From: a virus
Lineage: Duplodnaviria > Heunggongvirae > Uroviricota > Caudoviricetes
Strand: one strand, 5' to 3'
Virus record (IMG/VR): IMGVR_UViG_3300045049_000270
DNA length: 64,000 nt
In this document: positions 16,285 through 49,396 of the stretch, piece after piece
Layout: each line of letters begins with the position of its first letter
Numbering within the stretch: position 1 is the first letter of the stretch
The notes under the pieces: generated by a model
Told to the model about the DNA's origin: nothing
What the model saw: only the letters and a program-made list of their open reading frames with translations
Databases searched by the model: none
Program-made: the position numbers and the translations under genes

Positions 16285-16309
16285 TCGTATCATATGTTTT
16301 GATGCTGAT

Positions 16310-16745: not shown

Positions 16746-16777
16746 TAAAAGGGCCACATATGTGGCCCTTTTGTTTT
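16746..16777 (+). terminator. intrinsic terminator after tmRNA
   Basis: AAAAGGGCCAC-atat-GTGGCCCTTTT. Confidence 0.85.
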
Positions 16778-16868
16778 AAGAACGTAAAGTATGTAACCAA
16801 GAGTTGCAGCTTCGCTCAAGCTAAGTACAATAAAAGTTCCCGATAAGGGAATTACTTGGAGAACGTTC

Positions 16869-23155: not shown

Positions 23156-23231
23156 CGCCTCTTAGCTCAATTGGCAGAGCAGAAGTCTTCAAAACTTAAG
23201 GTTAGGGGTTCGATTCCCCTAGAGGCGACCA
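23156..23231 (+). tRNA. tRNA with UCA anticodon (opal suppressor, Trp-like loop)
   Basis: 76-nt cloverleaf: CGCCTCT/AGAGGCG-A-CCA, GCTC/GAGC D-stem, loop CTTCAAA (TCA at 23189-23191), GGTTCGATTCC T-arm, short variable loop; TTGACT-N16-TAGAAT promoter. Confidence 0.9.
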
Positions 23232-25168: not shown

Positions 25169-25765
25169 ATGTCAAGCATCGTTCAAACACTCAGAAAGAA
25201 AGATCTAATCAGCGACGCCCCACAGTTCGTTGTAAGTAATATTTGTTATGAGACTATAATGGGCTCTGAGTCCTATGCAGTCAGTAATGATGACAGTGAT
25301 CGCGACGTATATGGTTTCTGCTTGCCACCAAAGACAATGATTTTCCCGCATTTGTCAGGACATGTTCTTGGCTTTGGTACCAAACCACCTTCATTCGAAC
25401 AATATCAGCAGCATCATATTATCGACAAGGAAACTCGCAAGGAATATGATATCACGATTTACAATATCGTGAAGTATTTCCAGTTGCTGATGGAAAATAA
25501 TCCGAACATGATCGATAGTATTTTCACACCGCGTCGTTGTGTTCTGCATTCCACCAAGATTGCAGAAATGGTACGTGATGCTCGAAAAGAATTCCTTCAT
25601 AAGGGTTGCTGGCACAAGTTTAAGGGATATTCATTTGCTCAAATGAGCAAGATCAAGAACTCGTCGAACCCATTAACTGAATTTATGCGAGAAAAACGCG
25701 TACCAGCTAATGTAACTATGGATGATATTGAAAAAGAGTTAGCTAAACGATCTTTGGTTGTTTAG
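25169..25765 (+). CDS. pol-beta-like nucleotidyltransferase (RlaP-like), N-terminal fragment of a split gene
   Basis: GSESYA...SDRDVYG catalytic motif, NPN..D.LF, F.GY. Confidence 0.85.
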   Translation: MSSIVQTLRKKDLISDAPQFVVSNICYETIMGSESYAVSNDDSDRDVYGFCLPPKTMIFPHLSGHVLGFGTKPPSFEQYQQHHIIDKETRKEYDITIYNIVKYFQLLMENNPNMIDSIFTPRRCVLHSTKIAEMVRDARKEFLHKGCWHKFKGYSFAQMSKIKNSSNPLTEFMREKRVPANVTMDDIEKELAKRSLVV

Positions 25766-26546
25766 GCTTCATACCAATAGTCCACCCTTTAGAAAGCCAG
25801 ATCGGAAGATCATTCTCTGGAACTTGTTTGACTTTGCCAGTAGAAACCTCATGGATATATTTTAATTTTCTGGCTTTCTTCGTATTTTTCATATTTTGAA
25901 TTCGTTGTGCTTCTAACTCAGCTGATTTTGAAGCATGCCAAGCAGCCACCCCAGCAGATTGATTGTTCCACGCTGTTGCTAGATCTTCATCGGATCTACC
26001 CCAATATGATGATTTACAATTGGATTTGAATGTTTCTTTTTCTTCTGTTGACTTGAGAGCTTCTTCTATTTTTCGTCGTTGTCTAGTATTTTCTTGATGT
26101 TCGGCGAGCTGTTTTGGTTTTGAATGCCAAGTATCTTTTTTCTTTTTAGCCAAGGATTTCTTTTCTATTTCCGTCATCGCTGCTAACTTTGCTTTAGAAG
26201 CAGCGCTCATAGCTTGATAAATGCTATTCTTATATTCATCTGATAGATGGTCGTGATTGCGCCCACCGCCAGCTGAACTAGTTAGATTATAGTATTCATC
26301 ATTATTTGCTATGTCTGGAATCTTAGATAGCCATGATTCTTCTAGAGACAATAATTCAGTATGTGAACCAGAGCAGAAATCCAAAATAGTACGTTCAAAA
26401 ATCGACGGATCAAGTTCGTATGCTCTTCTAAAATAGATTCCTGAGCCCACATAACCATCGTCAATCTTGCCATAATGTGAACCGATATATTTCTTATTGT
26501 TGATTTTGTTTGTCCATTGATATACGAAGCCAGTATATTGTTTCAT
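25743..26546 (-). CDS. GIY-YIG homing endonuclease
   Basis: GFVY..TN.INNKKYIG, Y.GSG, E...YYN motifs; TATAAATA late promoter at 26583-26590 on minus strand. Confidence 0.9.
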   Translation of the reverse strand: MKQYTGFVYQWTNKINNKKYIGSHYGKIDDGYVGSGIYFRRAYELDPSIFERTILDFCSGSHTELLSLEESWLSKIPDIANNDEYYNLTSSAGGGRNHDHLSDEYKNSIYQAMSAASKAKLAAMTEIEKKSLAKKKKDTWHSKPKQLAEHQENTRQRRKIEEALKSTEEKETFKSNCKSSYWGRSDEDLATAWNNQSAGVAAWHASKSAELEAQRIQNMKNTKKARKLKYIHEVSTGKVKQVPENDLPIWLSKGWTIGMKPKQPKIV

Positions 26547-26599
26547 TATTGATTTTCCTTGAAATTCACTTATCATGTTGTTTATTTATAAGGTAAGAT

Positions 26600-27058
26600 A
26601 TGTTAGAACATTTGTCTGATGTCGAACTTCTAAAGTTGTACGAATTGAAAAAGAAATACCACTTGAAGGAAAACGAAAAACGTAGGGACGATATTATTGA
26701 ACATGGGTACTCGACCAAGTTTGCATATCACATCGTTCGGTTGCTTAACGAATGCGAACAAATCTTGATGACGGGTGATCTTGACCTTGAGCAAAATCGT
26801 GAACAGTTGAAAGCTATTCGTCGTGGTGAATGGACGCTTGCACAACTTGATGAATGGGCTGAAGACAAGCAAAAGGTGCTCGAGAATCTGTATGTCACAA
26901 GCACACTTCGCCACTCACCAGATGAAGAATATTTGAAGACCTTACTCATCAATTGTTTGGAAGAGCATTATGGTAACCTTGGTAATGCTGTGGTTGAACC
27001 AAACAAAGCTGACAAGCTAGTCGCTGAATTGGATCAACTTATCGCCAAGTACCGATAA
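26600..27058 (+). CDS. nucleotidyltransferase, C-terminal fragment of a split gene
   Basis: GY.TKFAYH.VRLL and LKAIRRGE are C-half motifs of the 25169 family; own RBS and ATG. Confidence 0.82.
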   Translation: MLEHLSDVELLKLYELKKKYHLKENEKRRDDIIEHGYSTKFAYHIVRLLNECEQILMTGDLDLEQNREQLKAIRRGEWTLAQLDEWAEDKQKVLENLYVTSTLRHSPDEEYLKTLLINCLEEHYGNLGNAVVEPNKADKLVAELDQLIAKYR

Positions 27059-28380: not shown

Positions 28381-28665
28381 ATGGAAAGCACTGATGAAGA
28401 TTCAATTGATTCCTCCATTCTAGGTGATCTTAAGAAAGAACGCCATCAGGAATGGTGGGACGACAATGTGAATGAAATCGAAGCGTCTGGTGTTCCTCAC
28501 ACCTTCACAAACAACGGCGAATCTGTGCTTTTTCGTGAGAAAGGCAAACCGAAAGTTGATTTCTTCCCATCAACAGGACGCTGGCGTATTGTAGGCAAGA
28601 ATGCAGGAACGATGGGTGGTGGGGCAAAGCGCTTCATCGAATGGTATAGCCAACAGACTGAATGA
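28381..28665 (+). CDS. hypothetical protein
   Basis: VDFFPSTGRW motif. Confidence 0.7.
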   Translation: MESTDEDSIDSSILGDLKKERHQEWWDDNVNEIEASGVPHTFTNNGESVLFREKGKPKVDFFPSTGRWRIVGKNAGTMGGGAKRFIEWYSQQTE

Positions 28666-28937
28666 AGCGATTTAATTCATTAAAAGAAGATGAATGGTTT
28701 GTGTTTCAAACCACATCAGTGTTCAACTCATTCATTGAGTTTTCAGATGAAATACAGTGGCTTAATGATCGTTATGATGACAGTGAATGTTATTCACAGA
28801 AAGCGATGATCTTCTGGGGTCGAAACGATGCTTTCGTTAGATTAACTTGTTTCGATGATGTTTCATTTGATTCGATCGTTGAATTTGGTTTCAAGTCACA
28901 ACTGGAAGCTCTAGAATTTCAGCTTACATTCGCGTAA
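28662..28937 (+). CDS. FKL.W-family small protein
   Basis: QWLN...EALEFQLTF. Confidence 0.7.
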   Translation: MKRFNSLKEDEWFVFQTTSVFNSFIEFSDEIQWLNDRYDDSECYSQKAMIFWGRNDAFVRLTCFDDVSFDSIVEFGFKSQLEALEFQLTFA

Positions 28938-29297: not shown

Positions 29298-29786
29298 ATG
29301 ATGTTCTTGCCACTTTACGTCGCCGCTTTCGTAGTCATCTGTTACTTTTTGGGACTCTTACATGCAAAGAAAATGAAAAAATGCAAACATACTGATTGCG
29401 CACATTTCATGATCGGCAAAGAGCAGAACTATGCTACAGTTACCATCCCCATCAATTCAGGTATTTTACTGACGTTGGATGATAATCCGTCAACCGGTTA
29501 TATGTGGGAGGTTTGTTCGTATGATTCGAATATCATCATGCAAATGAATCAACCCGAACATCTGCCGATCCAAGCACATTCAGCAACGGGTGATTTATTA
29601 GTTGGTGGCGGTGGTCGTATTCTATGGCGTTTCTGGGCCCAGAAGGAAGGACAGACTACTATCAAGCTGCTTCAGCGGCAACCGTGGGTCCCACCAGGCA
29701 CCGACCCGTATGAAACTGAGTTTTATTGTACAATCAATGTAACAACAAAGAACATTATACCTGCGTTGGAGTCAGTTCATGTCTGA
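29298..29786 (+). CDS. chagasin-like cysteine-protease inhibitor (I42) with N-terminal membrane anchor
   Basis: NPSTGY.W, GGGG...W.F and RQPW loops. Confidence 0.8.
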   Translation: MMFLPLYVAAFVVICYFLGLLHAKKMKKCKHTDCAHFMIGKEQNYATVTIPINSGILLTLDDNPSTGYMWEVCSYDSNIIMQMNQPEHLPIQAHSATGDLLVGGGGRILWRFWAQKEGQTTIKLLQRQPWVPPGTDPYETEFYCTINVTTKNIIPALESVHV

Positions 29787-30597: not shown

Positions 30598-30852
30598 ATG
30601 CTTACACCGAAACGATTTATTCTGAATGGTGCCGAATTGGTCGAATCGGCCGAGGGTAATCTGGTCGAATACACATCTTTTGTAGAACTTGCCGCTCATG
30701 CGATCGAAGGCGCTGCTAATAAGGAATTCTTGGATCGTCAAGTTCCTTCGCTAAAGAAAGCGTTGGTTGACATTCTTGTCATTGCGGCATCTTTTGACGA
30801 TGCCGAGATGAGTGAAATCAAAGAGCTCGCGGCACTCGCGTTGGCTCAATGA
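30598..30852 (+). CDS. hypothetical protein
   Basis: GAGG RBS before ATG 30598. Confidence 0.6.
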   Translation: MLTPKRFILNGAELVESAEGNLVEYTSFVELAAHAIEGAANKEFLDRQVPSLKKALVDILVIAASFDDAEMSEIKELAALALAQ

Positions 30853-31001
30853 GTGACAAACGATCCAAGATCGTATTCGGCGAAGCATTCAAGCGATTCA
30901 AAAATCGAGAACCAGCTCAAATGAGCAAGAAAACTCGTGAGTATGCTCGCAAAGTGCTTGAATGTTGTCAAGCGTCTCAAAATGAAGATTCCGAAGCTTG
31001 A
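30849..31001 (+). CDS. small basic protein (50 aa; 67 aa if TGA is read through)
   Basis: ATGA overlap with upstream gene. Confidence 0.45.
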   Translation: MSDKRSKIVFGEAFKRFKNREPAQMSKKTREYARKVLECCQASQNEDSEA

Positions 31002-31130: not shown

Positions 31131-31388
31131 ATGAAAGGCGTTAAGCTACTTTGGGATCGACACGTGGATCGGGCTGACTTCTGGTGCAAACATGGCTTCA
31201 AGATTGGCTATAATTTTGTGATTGATGTTGAAGAATCATCGAAGCTTGAATTTGAATCATTAGTATCATCCATGTCTTCTGTTCAAGTTCTGTCTAGACT
31301 TGGTCATGGAGATAATCAGATAACTCAAGTGATTCTTATGATAGCCGATGATACAGAAGCTGTTCAATTTAAGATGAGCATAGTATGA
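31131..31388 (+). CDS. FKL.W-family small protein
   Basis: EAVQFKM. Confidence 0.65.
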   Translation: MKGVKLLWDRHVDRADFWCKHGFKIGYNFVIDVEESSKLEFESLVSSMSSVQVLSRLGHGDNQITQVILMIADDTEAVQFKMSIV

Positions 31389-31786
31389 GTCATAATTCAC
31401 TACCTTGGATTCCAGTGGCTGATTTACACCGTTATATGAAAATTTCTCCTCTGAAAATAGCTGGTTTTGGGTACAAGCTTGCTAGTATGATGCCAAGCAT
31501 GCATGCTTATGATAGATGGCTATTAGAGGAACAATACAAAGCAACATTTATGCAAATCAGAAAAGTTCATAATGAATGGCATGTTACCGTTGATAATGCA
31601 AAAGAAAAGATCGAATGGTGTAGAGAAACTTTTGGTGAAGGTGGTAGTAAACCCAAATATAGATGGACTGCAACTTGGTTGGATTTGACTGAGCATAATA
31701 AACTGCTTACGATGCGTAATACAATCACGTTGAAATTCCGCGATAAAGAAGCAATTGCATTATTCAAGCTTCGGTGGATCGAATGA
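31385..31786 (+). CDS. FKL.W-family small protein
   Basis: WCRETFG...ALFKLRW. Confidence 0.75.
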   Translation: MSHNSLPWIPVADLHRYMKISPLKIAGFGYKLASMMPSMHAYDRWLLEEQYKATFMQIRKVHNEWHVTVDNAKEKIEWCRETFGEGGSKPKYRWTATWLDLTEHNKLLTMRNTITLKFRDKEAIALFKLRWIE

Positions 31787-32046
31787 GTGACAAATTCTTT
31801 TCTTATCGAGTGTCTAACGGATGGACTCTTATTTCACCTAAGTACAGATATTCATATGGCTCAATAACAAAGCCTGAAAATGAAGATCTAGTCGCACGCA
31901 TGGAAAAATGGTGCGAAGAAACATTTGGTAATGAGCATTATGGTTCTGGCCCCAATAGTACTTGGTACACGTTACATAATTCATTCTGGTTCTTGAACCA
32001 GTCAGATGTGACAATCTTTGTTCTACGCTGGGTTGATGAAATTTGA
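31783..32046 (+). CDS. FKL.W-family small protein
   Basis: WCEETFG...IFVLRW. Confidence 0.75.
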   Translation: MSDKFFSYRVSNGWTLISPKYRYSYGSITKPENEDLVARMEKWCEETFGNEHYGSGPNSTWYTLHNSFWFLNQSDVTIFVLRWVDEI

Positions 32047-32111
32047 CATAGCGTTCATCTGTTGAATGAATCCGTCATTAGTAGTATAATGATGAATCTT
32101 TAGGAGGAAAC

Positions 32112-32435
32112 ATGATTGACGTTACTGACTATGTGTACCACAATGGTGGAAATATTGCTGGAAATGACAGCTACGATGAACTGCTACAATGGTGTAATGA
32201 TAATGTAGGTGAGAGACTCGATGCTACAAACGGTATGAAATATCAAGCACTTGACGTGATATGGGCCGGTAAAGGTTGGTATTCTGGGATATTCAGAACA
32301 CACAACCCAGAACGAAACCAAAAATTCTTACATTTCTACTTTGCATTCGATGATGAACTTGACGAATTACAATTTAAATTGGCATGGCCTATTTTGACAT
32401 CACATCTACAGCCGTCACATTCAAAACAAGTGTAA
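32112..32435 (+). CDS. FKL.W-family small protein
   Basis: AGGAGG RBS; WCNDNVG...FKLAW. Confidence 0.8.
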   Translation: MIDVTDYVYHNGGNIAGNDSYDELLQWCNDNVGERLDATNGMKYQALDVIWAGKGWYSGIFRTHNPERNQKFLHFYFAFDDELDELQFKLAWPILTSHLQPSHSKQV

Positions 32436-32644
32436 TACGTGAATGGTGCATTGAAAATATTGGCCCAATAACCCATGACGGTCATTTGATTGGCGGTGGT
32501 AACGGTTGGTGGATAGAATATAGTTTCAGTCCACCTGATAAACATGGTTATGTGAAGACAATTAGGCATCTGTTCATATTAAATGATATTGATGCGGTTA
32601 GTTTTAGATTGGCTTATCCAAATGTCCCAATTATAAAAGAATAA
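32384..32644 (+). CDS. FKL.W-family small protein
   Basis: WCIENIG...DAVSFRLAY. Confidence 0.75.
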   Translation: MAYFDITSTAVTFKTSVIREWCIENIGPITHDGHLIGGGNGWWIEYSFSPPDKHGYVKTIRHLFILNDIDAVSFRLAYPNVPIIKE

Positions 32645-32645
32645 A

Positions 32646-32936
32646 GTGGACTTCAACATTACTACGATGTGGTATGAACATTATCATATCACGAGTTTAA
32701 GAAATACAGTTCCAATCACTGATTATTCAGAAATGATTGGATGGCTTGACGAAAATATTGGTTGGGCTATTACTGAAAATAATCGGTTTTTACCATACTA
32801 TGGGCATGGGTGGAGAATTGATATTGATCGTAGTGGTGACGAGCGAGTGAGTGGCATTTGTTTGACTATAGACGATGACACTGCTGCATTAATGTACAAA
32901 CTCGCATATGGCGATAAATGTGATAATAAGAAGTAA
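32646..32936 (+). CDS. FKL.W-family small protein
   Basis: WLDENIG...ALMYKLAY. Confidence 0.75.
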   Translation: MDFNITTMWYEHYHITSLRNTVPITDYSEMIGWLDENIGWAITENNRFLPYYGHGWRIDIDRSGDERVSGICLTIDDDTAALMYKLAYGDKCDNKK

Positions 32937-32939
32937 CAC

Positions 32940-33203
32940 ATGAAAGTATTTGAAATTTCACATATAGTTTGTAACCCAGAAAATGAGAAATGGAATGATT
33001 TGCTTATCTGGTTAACAAATAATATTGGTCCAATTCAATTGGATTTGTTTACAATGCCATATCTTATGAATGGTGATGGGTGGCGAATCAAGATTGATGC
33101 AACGGATGAAGATGATCGCTTATCTATAGCATATTTGCTTGAAATAGATTCAGATGTCTCAGCTGTTCACTTTAAACTTACTGATATATGGTGCATCGTA
33201 TAA
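32940..33203 (+). CDS. FKL.W-family small protein
   Basis: WLTNNIG...AVHFKL. Confidence 0.75.
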   Translation: MKVFEISHIVCNPENEKWNDLLIWLTNNIGPIQLDLFTMPYLMNGDGWRIKIDATDEDDRLSIAYLLEIDSDVSAVHFKLTDIWCIV

Positions 33204-33481
33204 ACGTTCATAGGTATATTCAAAATCATGATGGGTCGATTAATATGGTCGTCTACTATGAAATCATTGAGTGGCTCGAAACCAATTTGGGGCGAGCATA
33301 TCAAGAATATGATGAATTGCATCATGGCCGGCAAATAGCTCGGTGCGGTGAGATTTGGTCATTTCACAAATATCCAGTACCAAGCAAATATGATCCTTTA
33401 TGTGAATCAGAATATGAATGGCAAGTTGCTATGAATTGTGATGATAGTCGTGCTGTTGCATTTAAATTGATATGGTCGTAA
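33188..33481 (+). CDS. FKL.W-family small protein
   Basis: WLETNLG...AVAFKLIW. Confidence 0.75.
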   Translation: MVHRINVHRYIQNHDGSINMVVYYEIIEWLETNLGRAYQEYDELHHGRQIARCGEIWSFHKYPVPSKYDPLCESEYEWQVAMNCDDSRAVAFKLIWS

Positions 33482-33561
33482 TTAGTCTAGAAAATTCGCA
33501 TTGGATGTTAAATATTGACAATGACACACTTGCAGTGGCATTCAAATTAAAATGGCTATAG
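33472..33561 (+). pseudogene. internally deleted FKL.W-family unit (29 aa)
   Basis: MVVISLENSHWMLNIDNDTLAVAFKLKWL keeps only the ends of the family pattern. Confidence 0.65.
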
Positions 33562-33788
33562 ATATTACAAGAATAATTGTCAAACACCTTAATGGACGAC
33601 GCCCCGATTCCATTCCAATGTGCGTAAATTGGTTGTATGAACAGATTGGCGGTAAGCGTAAACCAGAAGCAACACAAGAAGGTCGTTGGTGTGGTCGTGG
33701 ATGGGTAATTCACGAACACGAAGGTAGGTTCTATTTGGAGTGTATTGAATCAACTAGTGAACAGAGATTTTCACTAATATGGTTATAG
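33552..33788 (+). CDS. FKL.W-family small protein
   Basis: WLYEQIG...FSLIW. Confidence 0.75.
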   Translation: MAIDITRIIVKHLNGRRPDSIPMCVNWLYEQIGGKRKPEATQEGRWCGRGWVIHEHEGRFYLECIESTSEQRFSLIWL

Positions 33789-34126
33789 ACATCTCTGAAT
33801 TGATGTGGTCGATTGTTTTAGGCATCAAAAATAACAATCCTATCCAATGGCTTGAAGAAAATGTTGGTCCTCAAATAGATGAACACCCAGATTTTGTGCC
33901 TCAAATGATGGGAGTGCATCAAGAACTTCGTTATCATGGTCGGCAATGGGCGATAACATTTGAAACCTTATTCATTCCCAATCCAGTTTCGGAAGATGAC
34001 TGGGGGCCTAAAAATGGCGAACTCTGGGGTATGATGCCATATTCCAAAACTATTACCACCACACGCTACTTTTTACATCTACTAGATGCTAGTCTAGCAG
34101 TTATGTTCAAATTACTTTGGTTGTAA
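33779..34126 (+). CDS. FKL.W-family small protein
   Basis: WLEENVG...AVMFKLLW. Confidence 0.75.
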   Translation: MVIDISELMWSIVLGIKNNNPIQWLEENVGPQIDEHPDFVPQMMGVHQELRYHGRQWAITFETLFIPNPVSEDDWGPKNGELWGMMPYSKTITTTRYFLHLLDASLAVMFKLLWL

Positions 34127-34372
34127 ATGGCAACAATAGTCACAGACTATCTATTGACTAGTCTCATCCCATCAGATGATAGGCAGCAACGCTATCTTGA
34201 AATAATTGATTGGTTAATAGAAAATGTAGGTCCATCTACACATGTCGGAAATAGACATGGAACGGGTTGGAAACGGTATCCCAGAATTAATGACGCCAGT
34301 GGCCAACTTGAATGGTGTATCGACATTGACGATGATACTTTGGCTGTAATGTTCAAATTGAAATTTGTGTAA
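34127..34372 (+). CDS. FKL.W-family small protein
   Basis: WLIENVG...AVMFKLKF. Confidence 0.75.
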   Translation: MATIVTDYLLTSLIPSDDRQQRYLEIIDWLIENVGPSTHVGNRHGTGWKRYPRINDASGQLEWCIDIDDDTLAVMFKLKFV

Positions 34373-34620
34373 TGAATACGATCGATATATCTAAATACAT
34401 GGTAGATAGTGCCCGAAGTGAAAACTGGCAACCCATGAAATTATGGTTACTCGAAAACGTAGGACCACTCAAAACAGTCCAAGGATCGAAGGCCATTGGA
34501 AAAGGCTGGGAATTAGCAAGACATAGCCAGAAGACACTGACTGGTGCGTATCAGGATACGTACTTCGTAATAATCGAAGACGAATTGCTGGCGTTGGCAT
34601 TTAAGCTTATCTGGTCATGA
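34372..34620 (+). CDS. FKL.W-family small protein
   Basis: WLLENVG...ALAFKLIW. Confidence 0.75.
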   Translation: MNTIDISKYMVDSARSENWQPMKLWLLENVGPLKTVQGSKAIGKGWELARHSQKTLTGAYQDTYFVIIEDELLALAFKLIWS

Positions 34621-34823
34621 TTCACATAACATCTCGATCACATGATTGCATGCTGCATAGCGTATTCCTAAATTGGCTTGTTGCCAATGTGGGGCCGTGC
34701 CATCGCGTCAAATTCGGGATCTTCCAAGGTGACGTTTGGTTGATGTCAGTCACCGCATCAGAAATCAAAGTTTACATTGACGAGCCAGCTCTTGAGGTTA
34801 TGTTCAAGCTGGCTTGTCTGTGA
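34617..34823 (+). CDS. FKL.W-family small protein
   Basis: WLVANVG...VMFKL. Confidence 0.7.
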   Translation: MIHITSRSHDCMLHSVFLNWLVANVGPCHRVKFGIFQGDVWLMSVTASEIKVYIDEPALEVMFKLACL

Positions 34824-35077
34824 ATGCGATCCCTATAACAAAAAACGAAGTTATATTCTTTCCAAGATTGTTGATTGAATGGTTGCACGAGAATATTGGG
34901 CACATCATTCATTCTGATATTTGGTGGTTCGATAGCTATGTTCCTGCAAGCGGTGAAGGATGGCGAATAGTCAAACTTTATCAGAGATTAGGGGATGGAT
35001 CCATCATATCACAATTCTACCTTGAATTCGACCTAGATGTTCATCTTGTTCAATTCAAGCTATCATGGAATTTCTAG
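34814..35077 (+). CDS. FKL.W-family small protein
   Basis: WLHENIG...VQFKLSW; start uncertain. Confidence 0.72.
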   Translation: MSVNAIPITKNEVIFFPRLLIEWLHENIGHIIHSDIWWFDSYVPASGEGWRIVKLYQRLGDGSIISQFYLEFDLDVHLVQFKLSWNF

Positions 35078-35325
35078 ATATTTCAGATCTCATCACCACC
35101 TGCCCGAGATCTACTACTCATGAACTTATCAGTTGGTTGACTGAATGTGTTGGTCCTGTGATAGGTTACCAAATCCCCTGGCCTGCCAGTATAGGTAGCG
35201 GTTGGCAACTTTTTATTGTATCATACCGCTTCAAACTGGCATATCCGGACCTACATGTTAGATCATGGGGTCTTGGGTTAGAAGATGATCGAGATGCTTT
35301 GATGTTTAGACTTAGGTGGCTGTGA
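35065..35325 (+). CDS. FKL.W-family small protein
   Basis: WLTECVG...ALMFRLRW. Confidence 0.75.
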   Translation: MEFLDISDLITTCPRSTTHELISWLTECVGPVIGYQIPWPASIGSGWQLFIVSYRFKLAYPDLHVRSWGLGLEDDRDALMFRLRWL

Positions 35326-35657
35326 TGGCATACGAAATCGACGTTCGATACTTGCTCAATAAAGAGAACTCTTTTGCGAAAATGCTCGATTGGCTAGTAT
35401 CGAATGTTGGCGATTATTTAAATGAACGAATTGCTCCCACACATGGTTCAGTGCATGAATACGATGTAATGGGCCAGGGTTGGAGATATGAATTTCGCAA
35501 ATTTTCTTATGAAATGGCAAACGGTGAAATTGTAACACCAGCACATGATTTGTCTCGATTTGAAATGGTATGCCTGCAAACTGTGACAATTTATTACAGC
35601 AAGTTCGTTTACATCGATGATGAAGATAAAGCAATTCTTTTCAAGTTGAGCATGTAA
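35325..35657 (+). CDS. FKL.W-family small protein
   Basis: WLVSNVG...AILFKL. Confidence 0.75.
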   Translation: MAYEIDVRYLLNKENSFAKMLDWLVSNVGDYLNERIAPTHGSVHEYDVMGQGWRYEFRKFSYEMANGEIVTPAHDLSRFEMVCLQTVTIYYSKFVYIDDEDKAILFKLSM

Positions 35658-35659
35658 TA

Positions 35660-35914
35660 ATGTACCTTGTGGAAATGAGCCGTGAGCATTTTACAGAGAA
35701 TGCTGAAGCATTTGAGGCTTGGCTTGATGAACACATTGGTCCGTTTAAATATCAAAGTGAATCCTTTCATGAGGAACATGAATATATCTATTATGTTGGT
35801 GAAGGATGGACTTTTGTGTTCTATGATCATGTTAAAACTTGGTGTGGTTTCGAATATTTGATGTTTTTCGAGAATGAAGCCGACGCTGTTCAATTCAAGC
35901 TAACATTCCTTTGA
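35660..35914 (+). CDS. FKL.W-family small protein
   Basis: WLDEHIG...DAVQFKLTF. Confidence 0.75.
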   Translation: MYLVEMSREHFTENAEAFEAWLDEHIGPFKYQSESFHEEHEYIYYVGEGWTFVFYDHVKTWCGFEYLMFFENEADAVQFKLTFL

Positions 35915-35987
35915 AATAATAGCTAAAATCTATTGAGTTGTGTTCATATGGTGTTACCATATGAACTATCAATCAATGGAGAATACT

Positions 35988-36257
35988 ATGGGAATACGAG
36001 CATATGTAAACATGCTTGAGGTCGACGAAGATCAAGTAGAGCAAGAACTGCTTGATATGAAATACCCATATGTGACCTTGTCAGCACAAGGTCGTCCGCT
36101 TGAAGAAGGGTATGATATTCACTTCTGGCTTGACGAAAATGTCGGTGAAGAAGATTACTATTATCTAAATATCACCAAATCTCTACAATATCACTCTGTA
36201 TTCTTCACCTATTCAAACGATGCACTCGCCTTCAAACTCGCATTCGGATACAAGTAA
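35988..36257 (+). CDS. FKL.W-family small protein
   Basis: GGAG RBS; WLDENVG...DALAFKLAF. Confidence 0.75.
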   Translation: MGIRAYVNMLEVDEDQVEQELLDMKYPYVTLSAQGRPLEEGYDIHFWLDENVGEEDYYYLNITKSLQYHSVFFTYSNDALAFKLAFGYK

Positions 36258-36321
36258 GGATTCGGTGTATCTGTGGTGGTCCAAGTTTCTATCCTCTTAC
36301 AGTTTCACGTATAGTCTAGAA

Positions 36322-36584
36322 ATGGTGAAACAAGTTGAAGAAGCTGGTCTTGCTATTGTTGCTATTCGCGGACCATATAATGCCGAGCCCGAGGGGCACA
36401 ACTGTCATGGGGTGACGTCCATTCACTATACGAGTGGTTGCAAGAAAACATCGAAAACTACAACTACCTAGTTGAGATTCAAGCAGATGATGATGGCGGA
36501 CAATCATATATCATATTTCCATCACTAGGTAAAGCTGTTGAATGGCGTTTGACTTGGACTGACTATCTTGCAGAACGAACATAA
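36322..36584 (+). pseudogene. frameshifted FKL.W-family gene
   Basis: MVKQVEE...EPEG continues in the -1 frame as AQLSWGDVHSLYEWLQENI...AVEWRLTW; shift near GAGGGG at ~36391. Confidence 0.65.
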
Positions 36585-36647
36585 TAAAATGCTTTGGATG
36601 CATAGTAGTTGGTGCTATAGTAACAAACCAACAACAAGCGCACGACG

Positions 36648-36842
36648 ATGACAAAAGATGATTGTACGGCGTTCATAGTTGAACATTTCGCTGAGCGTCT
36701 GATTTTCACAGCGTCTAGACATTGGTCCATGGTTCGTGAATACGAATTCAATGATGTCATATTTCGTGACTTTCATCACGATGATGGAATAACCTGCTCA
36801 GTGATACAAATTGGCAATATGCTCTTTGCCACCGACGATTGA
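36648..36842 (+). CDS. hypothetical protein
   Basis: 64-aa ORF. Confidence 0.5.
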   Translation: MTKDDCTAFIVEHFAERLIFTASRHWSMVREYEFNDVIFRDFHHDDGITCSVIQIGNMLFATDD

Positions 36843-36881
36843 TGCGTTAAAATGGCGTTCTAATTGACATCATAGTTCAAT

Positions 36882-37163
36882 ATGAACGTTAGAGACTACT
36901 TCAATTCCCAGCGTGCTGATAAAACACAGAATATCACGCAGATACGCAAACTTATGGATGCGCAGCCCTTTGTGCGTCTACCTGTCCCCCAAAATATAAA
37001 GATTGGACCACTTGTTGCATGGTGCCAAGAGAATATCGGGCGTGAAAATTTTGTCATATGTCAGAATACGATCTATTTTGAAGACACTGCGTCAGCTGTT
37101 CAATTCAAGTTACTCTTTAACGAACATTCAATTAAAAATACTAAAAAGAAACGGTGGTACTAA
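36882..37163 (+). CDS. FKL.W-family small protein
   Basis: WCQENIG...AVQFKLLF. Confidence 0.75.
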   Translation: MNVRDYFNSQRADKTQNITQIRKLMDAQPFVRLPVPQNIKIGPLVAWCQENIGRENFVICQNTIYFEDTASAVQFKLLFNEHSIKNTKKKRWY

Positions 37164-37396
37164 TGAAATTAGTAGCATGGGTTGAGGCTCAACCTTCAGA
37201 ACGTAGGGGGACATTTGTCTATTCATCGTTGCTTAAAGCTATGCCACATGAAATTACGATTCCGACTGAGTCGGCAAATGCGGCTGAAGAATGGTGTAAC
37301 AAATGTGTTGCTAATGAAGATTTCGTTTCGGTAGGTTATCGTTTCTTTTTCAAGAACGATAACGATGCACTGATGTTCAAACTAACGTGGTGTTAG
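37163..37396 (+). CDS. FKL.W-family small protein
   Basis: EEWC...DALMFKLTW. Confidence 0.75.
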   Translation: MKLVAWVEAQPSERRGTFVYSSLLKAMPHEITIPTESANAAEEWCNKCVANEDFVSVGYRFFFKNDNDALMFKLTWC

Positions 37397-37451
37397 CAAT
37401 TGCAATAGCCAGTTTTGACGCTTACAATAACGTCAAAATTGGCGATAATAA

Positions 37452-37715
37452 ATGGCATCAGCATTCTTCATTCCTTACAACCACATAGATGAAATAATTG
37501 AAGTTGAACGATGGCTACATGCAAATATTGGACCTCAAATACGTGAAACGATCAAGAATAACATCAAAATCTATAATTGGAAAACTGGAATCACATACGA
37601 CGCTAATTGGGACAGGAGATCAATTAGAGTTATCATTTATGACGATTCACATGCAGTAGCATTCAAGTTACGGTTTGTGGATATTATCAAGAAAACTGTG
37701 CATGGCGACCTTTAG
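37452..37715 (+). CDS. FKL.W-family small protein
   Basis: WLHANIG...AVAFKLRF. Confidence 0.75.
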   Translation: MASAFFIPYNHIDEIIEVERWLHANIGPQIRETIKNNIKIYNWKTGITYDANWDRRSIRVIIYDDSHAVAFKLRFVDIIKKTVHGDL

Positions 37716-37968
37716 TATAGAAGGCATCCAGATTAATAATTACATTTTCTTTAGGAAAGTGAAAGATTGGTTGAATGCCAACATTGGCCCGACTACTTCC
37801 GAATTGCTTGACGACGAAGATAGTGACATTATTTCATACATGAATGGTGATGGGTGGTCAATGAAGTATATATTTGTCTGGGATCAGGCTAGACTGAATA
37901 TAGAATTCAATATTGAAGATGATTGTCAGGCGGTGGCTTTAGCATTGCTGATACGAGATTGGGTGTGA
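37702..37968 (+). CDS. FKL.W-family small protein
   Basis: WLNANIG...GDGW...AVALAL. Confidence 0.72.
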   Translation: MATFSIEGIQINNYIFFRKVKDWLNANIGPTTSELLDDEDSDIISYMNGDGWSMKYIFVWDQARLNIEFNIEDDCQAVALALLIRDWV

Positions 37969-38237
37969 ATGTTATACAGATAACAAAATCAATGCAGGAT
38001 GAAAATGTTCTTGTCTTAGACGATCTGATTGAGTGGTTTACGTTAAGAACATCAACCGAAATTGAAAGAAAAGAGATTAACAGCAACGTTACTTGCACTT
38101 ACGTAAAAGGTGATGGTTGGAGCATCACCTTAACCTTTTTGGTCGGCCAATATAGAAGCTGGTCTATGGTATACCAAATAGAAATAGAAGACAATACACT
38201 GGCTGTTGAATTTGCCCTTGTTAAAGATCGATTCTAA
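37965..38237 (+). CDS. FKL.W-family small protein
   Basis: GDGW...LAVEFAL; GTGA overlap. Confidence 0.7.
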   Translation: MNVIQITKSMQDENVLVLDDLIEWFTLRTSTEIERKEINSNVTCTYVKGDGWSITLTFLVGQYRSWSMVYQIEIEDNTLAVEFALVKDRF

Positions 38238-38323
38238 ATCTACAAGCCATTTATAGGTTTTGTTATAATTAGATTACAGCGATGGTGATAGTACCATTGG
38301 TAAATAACGACCTTGGAGATAAC

Positions 38324-38596
38324 ATGATTTATGAACGGCAGGCTTTTATTGCAAAAAATTCTGATACTACCAAGGATATCTTACTTGCACCTGAACGCTA
38401 TGCAGAATTTGGCATGCCGTGCAAATGCCAGTTTTTTGTTAATATTAGTCTTCCCTGGGATGAAGAAAACTTTAAAAAACGTTTTTGGTTATGGGTTAAA
38501 GCACATATGGAGGGCGAAGTTCGAGTTTTTGGTGACGGAACTTGGATCGGATTCACCAACTATAACGATTCGTTTGAATTCTTCCTTTCCTGGTAA
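38324..38596 (+). CDS. FKL.W-family-like small protein
   Basis: GGAG RBS; WVKAH...DSFEFFLSW. Confidence 0.7.
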   Translation: MIYERQAFIAKNSDTTKDILLAPERYAEFGMPCKCQFFVNISLPWDEENFKKRFWLWVKAHMEGEVRVFGDGTWIGFTNYNDSFEFFLSW

Positions 38597-38616
38597 AGAA
38601 CAAAAAGAATACCAGT

Positions 38617-38910
38617 ATGCGATCATTTGATATAAGCCGAGTAAAATTTTTCATTTGGCCTATACTGCCTAATGACATAACTACTGCCAACAGTGATAAT
38701 TATAACTATATCACAATGATCGCTAGGGTTCAACACTCAGCAGAGCTGAGTGTTCATGAATGGGTTGAGGAAAATGTAGGCCCTGCTGATGTGCATGGCT
38801 GGTCCTTGGATTTTTCTAGAAAAAGTGGTAAAGCAGCAGTATTGACATTTGATAATGATAGTGAAGTAATTGCATTCAAGTTACGTTTTGGGTTGGATCC
38901 ATTCGAATGA
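38617..38910 (+). CDS. FKL.W-family small protein
   Basis: WVEENVG...IAFKLRF. Confidence 0.75.
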   Translation: MRSFDISRVKFFIWPILPNDITTANSDNYNYITMIARVQHSAELSVHEWVEENVGPADVHGWSLDFSRKSGKAAVLTFDNDSEVIAFKLRFGLDPFE

Positions 38911-39182
38911 TTACTCTTTCCGAGGACGATAGTATTAGTGATTTATATGTGTTGCATCGATGGTGGGTAACTTGGCCATCCGACCGACCAATTATGGATC
39001 GACGTTCAACAGAAAGACTTAATCTTATATATGAAATGAAAACCTACCTATATGAGCATGAATGTCAAGCTTTAATGATGTCGAATATTAATGGTCGATC
39101 TGGTTTCGGGTTCATGAACCAAATTGACGCAATCCAATTCTATTTGACATTTTCCGATCGTGGTGACGTGTTGAAGTTATGA
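38907..39182 (+). CDS. FKL.W-family small protein
   Basis: DAIQFYLTF. Confidence 0.7.
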   Translation: MITLSEDDSISDLYVLHRWWVTWPSDRPIMDRRSTERLNLIYEMKTYLYEHECQALMMSNINGRSGFGFMNQIDAIQFYLTFSDRGDVLKL

Positions 39183-39496
39183 AACTAGTGGAGCACCATT
39201 TTCCCTCAGGAACTAAAAATAGTAAGTTTAAACATTGGGTTGTTTGGGTTGAACTAGGTTCGCACCATCCGGCGATCATACCATATCGAACATTTTGGAC
39301 AGAATACATACCAAAGAAACGCAAATTACACAGTGATATGTATGAATGGGTGTTAATCAATCAAATATCAACCCCTAAAAGAATAGAAAAAATACCTGAA
39401 TTAAATGGTGTAGCTTTTGGCTTCGAAACTGCAGGCGAAGCCATGCAATTTTTATTAGTATTTTCAGATCGAATATTAGAGATAGAACTAAAATGA
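39179..39496 (+). CDS. FKL.W-family small protein
   Basis: EWV...EAMQFLLVF. Confidence 0.7.
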   Translation: MKLVEHHFPSGTKNSKFKHWVVWVELGSHHPAIIPYRTFWTEYIPKKRKLHSDMYEWVLINQISTPKRIEKIPELNGVAFGFETAGEAMQFLLVFSDRILEIELK

Positions 39497-42165: not shown

Positions 42166-42663
42166 ATGCAAGTTGATGATTTTTTGAATGTCGCAGGTTA
42201 CCAGATTCATGAAGGTGGCAAGTATTGTTGGAATTGCTATGGTGATCGCGCGTGGCAATTTGATTTCAAAAATGATGTGAGTATCGTTTTTGATCTCGAT
42301 ACAAAATTGATTTATGAAATCAGTGTGTGGTCTTCCGAACTTGAAAGATCAATGATTTGGGTTGATCCTACTTATGAAGTAACTTTAGTTCGAGAAGCAA
42401 CTGAACGCGGATATCCGATTGACTATCGCTGCCACGTGTTGAGTCATAAATCGATGATGACGCTTGTGGATCAAGCATTTTCTGGCAAAACACTCGATCT
42501 GGATTTAGCAAATTTCATCGATATTGATCTTACTGAAGAAGAGCAAGAATATCTAAAGATGGCGGCAGAACGTGAAGGCGTAACCATTGATGAATATGTG
42601 AACAAGGTTCTTACAGAAGCTGTCGAAAGACACAAGGCGGGCAAGGAATCACTTGCTGACTAA
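42166..42663 (+). CDS. conserved phage hypothetical protein
   Basis: Y.I..G..Y.W.CYG..A motif. Confidence 0.75.
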   Translation: MQVDDFLNVAGYQIHEGGKYCWNCYGDRAWQFDFKNDVSIVFDLDTKLIYEISVWSSELERSMIWVDPTYEVTLVREATERGYPIDYRCHVLSHKSMMTLVDQAFSGKTLDLDLANFIDIDLTEEEQEYLKMAAEREGVTIDEYVNKVLTEAVERHKAGKESLAD

Positions 42664-42702
42664 TTTAAGTCAGATCACGTTCATCTACAAGTGTGTTATC
42701 AT

Positions 42703-43176
42703 ATGCATATTGACTGGTACATTGAGCAATTCAAGTATGAAATTGATGGATCGTCAGTCTTTTCGTGGTCATGTTTCGGAGTCCGTTGTCGCGTTATGGA
42801 CTTCAACAATGTTTCAGTTGTGTTCGATCAAGCAAGACAAAGCGTCTATGCACTGATGATTACGCCAGTCAATGCGCCACACACCATGTATGTTTGGGTT
42901 CGTGATGATAAAGAAGTCGCATTCAAAAATGAAGCTAGAGCTAGTGGGATCGAATTCCTATACCTACACAGCCAGAGTATTGCCAACAAATGGGCGATGG
43001 CTAGTTTCAAGAATTGCGAAGTAGATTTGACTGAAGATGAGTATATCGAGCTTTCACTTTCTAGTGAATATTTGGAAAAACTCAACATGCTTCTTGATCA
43101 AGGAATATCATTTGATAAATTAGTTGAGAACGCTCTCACTAATTTATCAAACGATGATTGCACAACGGATACTTAA
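42703..43176 (+). CDS. hypothetical protein, paralogue of 42166..42663
   Basis: Y.I.G...F.W.CFG and VS.VFD shared with upstream gene. Confidence 0.72.
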   Translation: MHIDWYIEQFKYEIDGSSVFSWSCFGVRCRVMDFNNVSVVFDQARQSVYALMITPVNAPHTMYVWVRDDKEVAFKNEARASGIEFLYLHSQSIANKWAMASFKNCEVDLTEDEYIELSLSSEYLEKLNMLLDQGISFDKLVENALTNLSNDDCTTDT

Positions 43177-45488: not shown

Positions 45489-45574
45489 AATCAAATAATG
45501 CTTGACTGCCAATTCAAGTGAATACAGAATTGGCAGCGTTGTTTCTTTCTCAACTTATAGGAGCTATCAACAAC

Positions 45575-46267
45575 ATGAGCACTTCTCTTACTGCCGAAGG
45601 TCTCAATTCGGCTATGCTGAAGGTCTACAATTATGTATTCCTAGCACTGCTGTATACGGGTTTGGTTTCACTTTTCGTTGAAAGCAACAAGGTTCTGCTG
45701 GCGGTCACACAAACCGTCCCTGTTGTGATCGGCTTGATAATCACAAGCTTCATTCTCGTGATCGCAATTAATTCAGTCCGAAAAGGAACGTCGAAATCGG
45801 CACTAACCGGAATGTTTGGTGTATTTGCTACTATCTGGGGCGTGCTACTGGCGAGCGTTGTATCAAGGTATACGACGGCATCTTTGTTCCTTGCATTGTT
45901 CTCGGCAGCGATCCTGTTCCTGTCAATGTCAGGTTACGGATATTTTACCAAACGTGATATCACGTCATTCGGCCAATACTTGTTCATTGCATTGATCGCA
46001 TTGATTATTGCGATGATCATCAATATGTTCGTTGGCAGCTCTGTACTCACTATGGTGATCTCTGCCCTTGCAGTCCTGGTATTCATTGGTATTACCGCTT
46101 GGGACGCCCAGACGATTCGCAATAATCTTTATGCGGCGAGTGGCGATGAAGATGCACTTAACTACGCTACAATCAACGGTGCTTTGTCTCTGTACTTGGA
46201 TTTCCTGAATCTGGCTCTGAACTTGCTTGAATTGTTTGGTGTCAAGGTTCCTGGCAACAGCGACTAA
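45575..46267 (+). CDS. Bax inhibitor-1/YccA family membrane protein
   Basis: ~7 TM; GY.TKRD, AWD.Q.I, GAL.LYLDF.NL. Confidence 0.9.
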   Translation: MSTSLTAEGLNSAMLKVYNYVFLALLYTGLVSLFVESNKVLLAVTQTVPVVIGLIITSFILVIAINSVRKGTSKSALTGMFGVFATIWGVLLASVVSRYTTASLFLALFSAAILFLSMSGYGYFTKRDITSFGQYLFIALIALIIAMIINMFVGSSVLTMVISALAVLVFIGITAWDAQTIRNNLYAASGDEDALNYATINGALSLYLDFLNLALNLLELFGVKVPGNSD

Positions 46268-46881: not shown

Positions 46882-46907
46882 AGAAAAGCCCCAATTGGGG
46901 CTTTTCT
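46882..46907. terminator. bidirectional terminator
   Basis: GAAAAGCCCC-aatt-GGGGCTTTTC between convergent genes. Confidence 0.8.
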
Positions 46908-47218
46908 TACGAGTGAAGTAAATCACAAAATGTCAATTTGAAAAGTACGGCATCGCGTACTCTAACAAATCGAAACTCAAGACGATTATCATCAATCGTT
47001 TGTGTGATAACACCTTGTGCATTTATCCATGTGGTGGTGTTGAAATTCACCCTGACACCACGTTTGCTAACGTTGGTCTGCACCCAATCATATACGTCTC
47101 GGTAAGCATCAGGACTATAGATCAAGCTCACTGAGTGACGATATATGATATGTGCAATGAAAGATAAAATTTTACTGGATGACTTACGGATCATGGCTCT
47201 AAGCGAGGACGGCTTCAT
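46907..47218 (-). CDS. FKL.W-family small protein (array B)
   Basis: DWVQTN...DAVLFKLTF. Confidence 0.75.
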   Translation of the reverse strand: MKPSSLRAMIRKSSSKILSFIAHIIYRHSVSLIYSPDAYRDVYDWVQTNVSKRGVRVNFNTTTWINAQGVITQTIDDNRLEFRFVRVRDAVLFKLTFCDLLHS

Positions 47219-47487
47219 TATACACTACCAGCCTTGAAATCATTCCAACTCAGCTTAAACGCAACAGCATCAGCGTCATTCTTGAACTGAATGAAGAATG
47301 AAACGAATCCATCTTCTTTGCGTCCATGCTCATCAAATACAAGCGCCACTGAAGATGAATCAACATTATTAGTCAACATCCAATTTTTGAACAAATCAGT
47401 TGGACGTGGAACGATAGACACCGAGCCTTGTTCGGCCTCAGTAAGGACCAAGACCATCACAACGTTATCTACTTGTAAAGTAATCAT
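47218..47487 (-). CDS. FKL.W-family small protein (array B)
   Basis: WMLTN...DAVAFKLSW. Confidence 0.75.
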   Translation of the reverse strand: MITLQVDNVVMVLVLTEAEQGSVSIVPRPTDLFKNWMLTNNVDSSSVALVFDEHGRKEDGFVSFFIQFKNDADAVAFKLSWNDFKAGSV

Positions 47488-47765
47488 TAGCTGAATATAA
47501 GCTTTATTTTGACAGCAAGCACTGGATCATTCATTCCAATTCTAACATAGTTCGGATCATCTGGGCTGGCACCATAATACATCCAATCTTTACCCCATAC
47601 ACCAACCTCAGCAACCATTGTAGGCATGATTGCATCGAGTGCATCATAGTTGTAATAGATATTTTGATCTGGCCCCATCGATACCTTCAACCTGGCTTCT
47701 TGCGGCCAAGGAATATCAAATGTAACTTGAAACTCAGACATCTTGCGGGCTGGATATGTTGTCAT
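47487..47765 (-). CDS. FKL.W-family small protein (array B)
   Basis: LAVKIKLIF. Confidence 0.68.
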   Translation of the reverse strand: MTTYPARKMSEFQVTFDIPWPQEARLKVSMGPDQNIYYNYDALDAIMPTMVAEVGVWGKDWMYYGASPDDPNYVRIGMNDPVLAVKIKLIFS

Positions 47766-47766
47766 T

Positions 47767-48168
47767 TTAACCCCACACAATCTTGAATTTGGCAGCATCT
47801 TCGATTTTCTTGAAAACAAAAGTTACTCGTGTTTCATTGTCGTGAATAACTGATTCTACATACCTCAACTTCAAATCGGATTCTCTTACCCATTGGATGG
47901 CATCGTCACGAGAATTTTCTTTGCCCAACAATACTGACACCTTAGGTGGCATATTCTTGAATTGAATCATCTCAGTGCAAATTCCTTTTGAAGCACTGAT
48001 ATTTCTTGGTGTTTCCCAATCTTTCGTATTCATGAAAATCTTACTTTCACTTGTTTTCTTTTTCTTCTTATTCTTATAAGAATACCAACTGGAATATTCG
48101 AATTTAATTGTTACTGTTACGGTATTTGGATAGTAGGAACTAACGTCGTAAATATCGTACATAGTCAT
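47767..48168 (-). CDS. FKL.W-family small protein (array B)
   Basis: QWVRE...DAAKFKIVW. Confidence 0.72.
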   Translation of the reverse strand: MTMYDIYDVSSYYPNTVTVTIKFEYSSWYSYKNKKKKKTSESKIFMNTKDWETPRNISASKGICTEMIQFKNMPPKVSVLLGKENSRDDAIQWVRESDLKLRYVESVIHDNETRVTFVFKKIEDAAKFKIVWG

Positions 48169-48812
48169 GGCAATTCTTTTTCCTCGTTGCCATCAATCCA
48201 TACGAGTTTTGTCATCACTGCTTCGGTTTTTTCTTTTACTTCGGCAATGATTTCAGGTTTGAAACTATGTTTACGAACTTCCCATTCACTAGCCAGATTT
48301 TCTCGACACCATGTCGTGATTTCATTTAGATGATAATCTAACTTTCTTCCTTCTGGGACTGGTAAAACCAATTGATGATCACGTGGTGTACGAATAACTT
48401 GTTGGAAGTCAGTCTGATCATCAAAATGGCAGAATGTTAGGTTCCACAACCCATTCTGTTGGTTTTGAGCATATACTGTATCACGACAATTTTCGAACCA
48501 TTTCTCGAAATCACCTCTCCAGAAATTGTATCTTCGAATATGATCGACATTGACGCCAAATTGAGTAAAACGTTCTTTTCCGAAGAAAAGAATGTGATCA
48601 TTCAACGGATCATAAAACACATTGTAACCACTAGGAGATGAATACACTTGATTTGTCAATGGGTAGAACATTCCGTTGACATTCAGGCTGATATTAGCTC
48701 CATTCAAATTATTAACTGGTGTTGACGGTTTCGCAGTGGCGACATCACCTATTTTGAATAGTTGATCGCTGATTGAAAAAGCTGGTGGAATAATCTGGAG
48801 TTTTGAGGTCAT
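48165..48812 (-). CDS. FKL.W-family protein with two tandem units
   Basis: KWFEN...DQTDF and WCRENL...EAVMTKLVW. Confidence 0.7.
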   Translation of the reverse strand: MTSKLQIIPPAFSISDQLFKIGDVATAKPSTPVNNLNGANISLNVNGMFYPLTNQVYSSPSGYNVFYDPLNDHILFFGKERFTQFGVNVDHIRRYNFWRGDFEKWFENCRDTVYAQNQQNGLWNLTFCHFDDQTDFQQVIRTPRDHQLVLPVPEGRKLDYHLNEITTWCRENLASEWEVRKHSFKPEIIAEVKEKTEAVMTKLVWIDGNEEKELP

Positions 48813-48814
48813 TG

Positions 48815-49072
48815 TTATTGCCAGGTTAACTTGAACCAGATGGCAATTTTTTCATCTGTGAATGCTACATGCCATTTCTGATCCAGTACTTTGGAATAAC
48901 GCCAATTGTAGCATATATCATCGAGATATGTGGTGAAAACTGCCACATTGAATGGTAATTTGTAATCTTCAATAGCATTCTCTTGCATCCATTCTTGTAT
49001 CTCACAGAAATATTCGAAATCCTTTGGATATGGAATTTCCACAATATAGAGGCCTAACAAGTCATCCATCAC
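48815..49072 (-). CDS. FKL.W-family small protein (array B)
   Basis: WMQEN...AIWFKLTW. Confidence 0.75.
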   Translation of the reverse strand: MMDDLLGLYIVEIPYPKDFEYFCEIQEWMQENAIEDYKLPFNVAVFTTYLDDICYNWRYSKVLDQKWHVAFTDEKIAIWFKLTWQ

Positions 49073-49395
49073 AGATATTTTAAACGAAAGTGAAGTGCTT
49101 CAACTTCATCATCTATGATGACGTATTCAGCTATTGTGGCATTGAAGTTGTATCCATCGTACTGCTTTTCTTGTATAGCCCGGATACTTGGGTACTCTTC
49201 TTTGAGGTGTTTGAACAGTGATGATTCTTCTATCGTATGGAATTTGCATTTCCATACGCGAAGTCGTACTAGATATGATTCACGTTGATGTAGAATGCAT
49301 TCCGCTGCTACTCGTTCATGCCATGAACCTTGCACACGTTTGTTCTCACCAGTGATAATCAGTGCATTGCCACATTGCGGAAAATGATGAATCAT
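49069..49395 (-). CDS. FKL.W-family small protein (array B)
   Basis: EALHFRLKY. Confidence 0.68.
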   Translation of the reverse strand: MIHHFPQCGNALIITGENKRVQGSWHERVAAECILHQRESYLVRLRVWKCKFHTIEESSLFKHLKEEYPSIRAIQEKQYDGYNFNATIAEYVIIDDEVEALHFRLKYL

Positions 49396-49396
49396 A

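Follow-up and report, generated by a model that had tools for sequence, protein, structure and literature searches.

A mainly old repertoire of some 50 copies of one small-protein family in a jumbo phage: possible intracellular binders and decoys

A 64,000-nt stretch of tailed-phage DNA (IMG/VR record IMGVR_UViG_3300045049_000270; the whole stretch is called the window here) carries long runs of short open reading frames (ORFs) that appear to encode versions of one small, highly variable protein, which raises the question of why a phage would keep so many. An earlier reading made without database searches (the sequence-only reading) had proposed that about 50 copies of one hypervariable family fill roughly a quarter of the window. 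This expansion is confirmed. Each of 51 candidate ORFs was scored against a hidden Markov model (HMM) of the others and compared with 200 shuffles of its own sequence, using an alignment built once with all rows included. All 200 shuffles were beaten by 45 of the 51 candidates, and in the other genomes searched no reversed decoy reached E < 1, so the profile is shared beyond chance. Without ORF 36648, the remaining 50 candidates span 15,219 nt, or 23.8% of the window with overlaps counted twice. Identity to the best paralogue in the window has a median of 20% and a maximum of 42%.

The main run, array 1 (31131-39496; Table 1), contains 29 consecutive plus-strand ORFs, in line with the original count, and 27 of these beat all shuffles. 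Across the window, 18947, 47487 and 47767 were borderline, their scores being reached by one to three of 200 shuffles, and 36648, 38324 and 51400 failed. The ORF at 38324-38596 scored 1.1 bits, while its orthologue (73% identical) in the complete genome of a related phage, G005 (523,836 bp), scored E = 1e-5. The G005 orthologue of 51400 likewise scored 1.6e-7. ORF 36648-36842, at 0.3 bits, is the sole clear non-member. Because the orthologue of 38324 scores well and 36648 does not, array 1 was taken to comprise 28 members and one intruder, plus a remnant of 29 residues. The genes are tightly packed, with 19 of the 27 junctions overlapping or separated by no more than 3 nt, and a Shine–Dalgarno-like word precedes only two of the 28.

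The motifs read from the sequence, W(L/C).EN.G, G.GW and a C-terminal (I/F).D..A..FKL.(W/F), match the column frequencies in 191 aligned domains: W 87%, N 47%, G 92% and the second W 92%, followed in the C-terminal motif by A 81%, F 86%, K 75% and L 89%. The weakest link to the family, as judged by profile comparison, is array 3. Its seven genes (60546-63156) passed the leave-one-out test while supporting each other, and alone they aligned with the remaining family at an hhalign probability of 41.5% (E = 2.7e-4), through the last 24 columns only. The probability rose to 97.7% with long forms from G005 added, which had themselves been chosen by the family profile.

None of the characterised families searched explains the expansion. 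No match at the curated cut-off was found for 53 ORFs in Pfam, nor for 38 ORFs in NCBIfam, and PHROGs gave the 53 ORFs no credible member match, only two weak partial rows (E 0.004-0.007). Solved structures searched by sequence gave a best E of 0.3. A predicted model of the protein encoded at 32384 (predicted local distance difference test, pLDDT, 90; predicted template modelling score 0.78) shows a strand, two helices, four strands and a terminal helix. The domain is thus predicted to be small, to have the order beta-alpha-beta(3-4)-alpha and to end in a conserved helix that is mostly hydrophobic. The proposal of one scaffold with a constant helix and a variable remainder is supported by the model and by column conservation. 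The conserved positions are the helix 1 W, the GW turn and the last strand-helix unit. Six of eight positions in the last helix are hydrophobic, accompanied by a conserved K/R; this hydrophobicity would seem to exceed what packing on one sheet face needs. The proteins are acidic, with a net charge of -3 or lower in 36 of 50 and a basic charge in only four. An array 3 model (pLDDT 84) has the same order of elements plus an inserted helix. Arrays 1 and 3 likely share the fold, although the lists of hits in BFVD differ between this model and that of 32384.

Foldseek found no match in the PDB for the 32384 model. Its neighbours in the ESM Atlas are virus-only clusters without names (template modelling scores, TM, of 0.85, 0.75 and 0.68), and in BFVD it matches, besides one protein of Atu_ph07, proteins from uncultured phages that are uncharacterised (top TM 0.80). 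The domain is therefore wider than the genomes compared, yet unnamed. A VIA structural ranking of 48,161 chains gave no Z of 8 or above and was led by TBP-like and KA1-like domains: the MoaD-related C-terminal domain (1v8c; Z 6.8, root-mean-square deviation (rmsd) 3.3, 70 residues aligned) and the RNase H3 N-terminal domain (3vn5; Z 6.6, rmsd 2.2, 62 aligned), followed by the METTL16 VCR (Z 5.5) and the adaptin appendage (Z 4.7). These domains also have a sheet with helices over one face, but identity is 6-9%, Z is middling and Foldseek is silent, and the likeness may reflect a common arrangement only. An RRM-like reading suggested by the motif gained no favour from the same ranking, in which an RRM reached Z 4.7.

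How old the repertoire is was assessed against G005, with which the window is collinear at 66-87% DNA identity. A G005 hit was found for 41 of the 50 candidates and lies at the same position for 40, the hit of 32940 being a paralogue. In array 1, order is kept for 26 of the 28 genes, and G005 has two extra copies. Proportions of nonsynonymous (pN) and synonymous (pS) differences were 0.33 and 0.77 (saturated) for the family and 0.17 and 0.67 for non-family genes. Median orthologue identity was 45% for the family and 68.5% for small non-family genes (p = 6e-4; 26 of 29 non-family genes had hits). Per-column agreement outside the W and the last helix is about 5-10% among paralogues and 30-55% among orthologues, as would be expected of separate specificities. 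A sister-strain contig differs by 113 substitutions over 9.9 kb. Of 117 listed differences, the first 40 include 10 changed and 12 silent codons in family genes, three codons next to compensating indels being approximate. The DNA repeats are codons of the motifs only, at 60-80% identity and with no near-identical copies, and recent duplication or a cassette or recombination-site system was rejected on this basis.

Because paralogues are at most 42% identical, no near-identical DNA is present and 40 of 50 copies have orthologues despite saturated silent sites, the repertoire is mainly old and individually maintained. From these comparisons it is constrained, evolves faster than other small genes and turns over slowly. 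The ongoing birth and death put forward in the sequence-only reading was thus overstated, though some turnover is real. Truncated, frameshifted and double-unit members are all present, as had been noted. Where the window has the remnant at 33472, G005 has a full-length gene (199659-199901). The sister strain has one more base near 36392, and the G005 orthologue there is one open frame. Array 3 has seven copies in the window and one at the same site in G005. At 32940, 10 substitutions and two indels relative to the sister strain are packed into 33100-33137, in the variable hairpin.

The window derives from an Atu_ph07/Phosso-like jumbo phage, to judge from its genes. Matches to a virion gene at 3764-4690 are restricted to Phosso, Atu_ph07 and GAP32/Rak2-like phages, with the same gene neighbourhood, and Phosso is the sole match for ORF 1216-2532. 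An alphaproteobacterial host is suggested by these relatives. Runs containing window DNA are soil and rhizosphere metagenomes, and no RNA dataset is listed among them. Sigma-70-like sites, tried as a sign of early expression, were not enriched over 28-41 kb (46 versus 42.5 ± 8.3), although the gaps at 32062 and 37400 contain good matches.

A profile built from the window only gave 86 matches in G005, 53 in Phosso and five in Atu_ph07. It gave none in GAP32, SCTP-2, XacN1, RsoM2USA, XaC1 or LR756502, where distant single copies could be missed. Three IMG/VR fragments had two to five matches and a fourth had none. Iterated local profiles, partly trained on G005, Phosso and Atu_ph07 and likewise free of reversed decoys under E = 1, found 85 (E < 0.01) to 115 (E < 1) copies in 400 of the 524 kb of G005, where the range had been 71 to 98 without G005 rows. 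The whole Phosso genome gave 62-73 copies and Atu_ph07 3-8. The count per genome that had been suggested as a check therefore stands at about 85-115 in G005, 53-73 in Phosso, 3-8 in Atu_ph07 and zero in six others. Word-based homologue searches returned only the window phage and near strains, and the one bacterial locus from a scan of JGI metagenomes was spurious; a further locus, L040, was likewise unrelated. Relationships were drawn from score-based nearest neighbours. These lie in the same genome for 43 of 62 Phosso members (45% expected) and within 12 kb for 15 of 43 in Phosso (13% expected) and 22 of 46 in G005 (18% expected), pointing to separate local expansions. The member at 19475 is the one with clear orthologues in both Phosso (at 175789) and Atu_ph07, and is a candidate founder. 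Also in G005, four tandem proteins of 224-290 aa (244203-247281) carry a family-like domain at the end, a sub-expansion in a larger format.

Because one ESM Atlas cluster contained 13% Gp23, capsid pieces were searched for among the family proteins. Two firm members and one borderline member, in G005 and Phosso, carry one. The Phosso protein at 113926-114360 has an N-terminal 19-residue copy of a C-terminal capsid strand, and the C-terminal end of G005 232734-233162 corresponds to the capsid spine helix. The adjoining G005 232312-232746, a borderline member (3.8 versus 3.0 bits), has the same strand motif at its end. When 258 family queries, of which the last one was added by hand, were compared blind with 965 large ORFs, the pieces scored E = 1e-3, 7e-4 and 0.035, against reversed decoys of which two fell under 0.01 and seven under 0.03. 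Both G005 pieces also match the Pfam model (PF07068) of Gp23, the T4-type major capsid protein, at E of about 1e-3, short of the model's cut-off. What is common to Gp23 is 19-30 residues of short conserved segments; the family domain itself is unrelated. The major capsid protein is a known trigger of defence, as described for CapRel in passages of PMC13728456. A gene for a ClpS adaptor lies two genes upstream of the G005 fusion pair (230323-233162). Two further ORFs, G005 256426-256953 and Phosso 182169-182852, begin with a copy of a Gol-like capsid segment; these were rejected as family members since their scaffold differs.

What the copies do is answered tentatively, at somewhat short of even confidence, by a library whose members would serve as binders and decoys and would share a docking helix. 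Tandem duplication of one small alpha/beta domain would have given rise to an old family, each copy of which is kept by selection. All copies would dock on a common partner through the conserved C-terminal helix and would differ in the host protein that they engage through the variable sheet face, the loops and the end extensions. The targets would most likely be parts of anti-phage defence, and the proteins would act inside the cell. About 50 individually kept, faster-diverging and mostly acidic copies in the window, the large sets in G005 and Phosso, the hydrophobic last helix, the capsid-piece fusions and the absence of four Atu_ph07 members from the virion table rows covered are consistent with this library. 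Of the earlier suggestion of anti-defence binders or decoys, the decoy part gains support from the fusions, in relatives only.

Several observations weigh against the library. Its target, its partner and the expression of the genes are putative, and the conserved residues may simply form the folding core. Atu_ph07 lives with 3-8 copies. The comparisons do not show positive selection, the silent sites being saturated relative to G005 and more diverged in the family than elsewhere. Long-stable gene order fits stable functions better than a fast arms race. A recognisable mimic piece occurs in only three of the 258 family queries, none of them in the window, and the two Gol-like capsid mimics use a different scaffold. 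A bolder form of the library is unlikely: a repertoire resembling antibodies or F-box proteins, with about 100 variants on one scaffold, in which the constant helix would plug into one effector, such as the phage ClpX, and the variable faces and grafted capsid pieces would bait individual immune sensors for sequestration or destruction.

The same helix could instead serve to pair copies with one another, giving homo- or hetero-oligomers in many combinations, or an assembly in the cytoplasm, tuned by the variable faces. The hydrophobicity of the last helix, the tight translational coupling and the conserved gene order would suit such pairing, but a single chain is predicted to be a complete compact domain and copy number ranges from fewer than 10 to about 100 across relatives; this explanation is considered rather improbable. 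Also improbable, and a little more so, are substrate adaptors for the phage ClpX or host ClpXP, in which, by analogy with F-box proteins, the helix would dock on the protease and the variable part would select the victim. All four phages that carry the family encode ClpX, and none turned up in the 219 of 359 kb of GAP32 covered; the two G005 fusions have a ClpS gene nearby. Four genomes against one partial genome make no correlation, however; the phage tmRNA gives ClpX another ready job, and Atu_ph07 has ClpX with few copies.

A constant handle with a variable business end is multiplied in the T4 internal proteins IPI-III and in viral F-box and ankyrin adaptor families, for which no sequence or fold link to the present family was found, none having been looked for. 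By analogy with the T4 proteins, small variable proteins that stand in arrays and keep one end constant might be packaged inside the virion, the helix acting as packaging signal. This is the least probable of the explanations weighed. Atu_ph07 gp232, gp234, gp255 and gp258 (the last being the founder orthologue) are all four absent from the virion proteome rows in supplement part 3 of 3; gp38 falls outside that part, and two members are unannotated. The arrays also sit among metabolic and accessory genes, outside the virion block. Only marginally more credible, and very unlikely, is a largely dispensable accretion in which a stable mini-domain duplicates easily in coupled operons under weak selection. 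The remnant, the frameshift, the seven-to-one difference at array 3 and the few copies in Atu_ph07 would fit, but open frames and order are kept despite saturated silent sites, pN is far below pS, and silent changes are in excess relative to the sister strain. Regulators that each bind a different DNA or RNA site through a TBP-like sheet are quite unlikely as well. The second-best structural match is TBP-like, and such a role was proposed for the zinc ribbons of phage G in passages of Iyer et al. (PMC7824862), but Z values below 8 are common among unrelated domains, the proteins are mostly acidic and a conserved basic face is absent.

Expansions of a small domain have a precedent among jumbo phages. 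In the passages available of Iyer et al. 2021 (PMC7824862), who compared 224 jumbo phages, a zinc-ribbon expansion of about 35 copies in Bacillus phage G was called unprecedented. Both cases are lineage-specific expansions of one small uncharacterised domain. As set against that account, the present family differs in having no conserved cysteines, about three times as many copies, acidic proteins, long coupled arrays and maintained orthology. No description of the family, of its scale or of its maintained order was found in the literature searched, subscription journals being outside the coverage. The family is unmentioned in those passages of PMC7824862, whose supplements may list it; the main text of Attai 2018 (PMC6102473) has no 'paralog' or 'duplicat', and the portion consulted of the AP-J-162 paper (PMC11242549) has no 'paralog'.

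In half-megabase phages most genes are small and unexplained, and 50-115 of them per genome belong here to a single undescribed domain. Phosso is a cultured Sinorhizobium phage with more than 50 copies, and its whole repertoire could be screened against Sinorhizobium defences. If copies do combine a docking handle with a bait, the family would supply a large number of anti-defence proteins and, at the same time, a small binding scaffold of natural origin; an antibody- or F-box-like repertoire, if true, would be a programmable counter-defence platform, undescribed in phages.

Table 1. Family genes and related features of the window
Feature	Position	Strand	Basis or comparison
Array 1, 28 family genes	31131-39496	+	Leave-one-out HMM; 26/28 same-order orthologues in G005
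Array 1 gene starts, first half	31131, 31385, 31783, 32112, 32384, 32646, 32940, 33188, 33552, 33779, 34127, 34372, 34617, 34814	+	
Array 1 gene starts, second half	35065, 35325, 35660, 35961, 36313, 36882, 37163, 37452, 37702, 37965, 38324, 38617, 38907, 39179	+	
29-residue remnant: coupled start codon and only the last strand and conserved C-terminal helix	33472-33561	+	
Frameshifted family gene, short G run near 36392	36313-36584	+	Sister-strain and G005 comparison
Copy without G005 orthologue	32940-33203	+	Differs from sister strain in variable hairpin
Non-member gene within array 1, kept in G005 (65%)	36648-36842	+	
Array 2a, 8 genes downstream of topoisomerase A subunit; 47487 and 47767 borderline	46907-49648	-	
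Double-length copy, 215 aa, in array 2a	48165-48812	-	
Array 2b, 2 genes between topoisomerase subunits; 51400 backed only via orthologue	51044-51741	-	
Array 3, 7 long-form copies (103-129 aa) with inserted helix; one gene here in G005	60546-63156	-	
Conserved single-copy member, candidate founder	19475-19816	+	Orthologues: G005 77%, Phosso 48%, Atu_ph07 gp258 38%
Dispersed member	15133-15414	+	40%-identical relative in IMG/VR phage contig with 5-member cluster
Two dispersed degenerate members (18947 borderline, 19240 passes)	18947-19512	+	Leave-one-out HMM
Dispersed member	28662-28937	+	Leave-one-out HMM, G005 comparison

Elsewhere, the window encodes a permuted tmRNA, ClpX, IF3, PTH2, topoisomerase subunits and an RNA ligase. 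The transfer-messenger RNA (tmRNA) is of the two-piece type, with a tag peptide (16273-16782, +), and ClpX adjoins translation initiation factor IF3 (57261-59042, +). A tRNA with a UCA anticodon lies at 23156-23231, and a suppressor tRNA of the same anticodon is listed for Atu_ph07. An RlaP-like nucleotidyltransferase (25169-27058) is in two pieces flanking a minus-strand endonuclease-like ORF (25743-26576); a single G005 ORF matches both pieces, which suggests an intron or mobile insertion. Directly upstream of array 1, a 50-aa gene (30849-31001, +) has five changed codons and a lost stop in the sister strain. A second pair of small paralogues (42166-43176, +) is 24-30% alike, with a weak ParD/DUF6290-like tail. 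A Bax-inhibitor-1 family membrane protein and a chagasin-type peptidase inhibitor are encoded at 45572-46267 and 29298-29786, respectively. In the virion block, the N-terminal part of a 65-aa protein (437-634, +) resembles the N-terminal region of the major capsid protein (E = 0.008).

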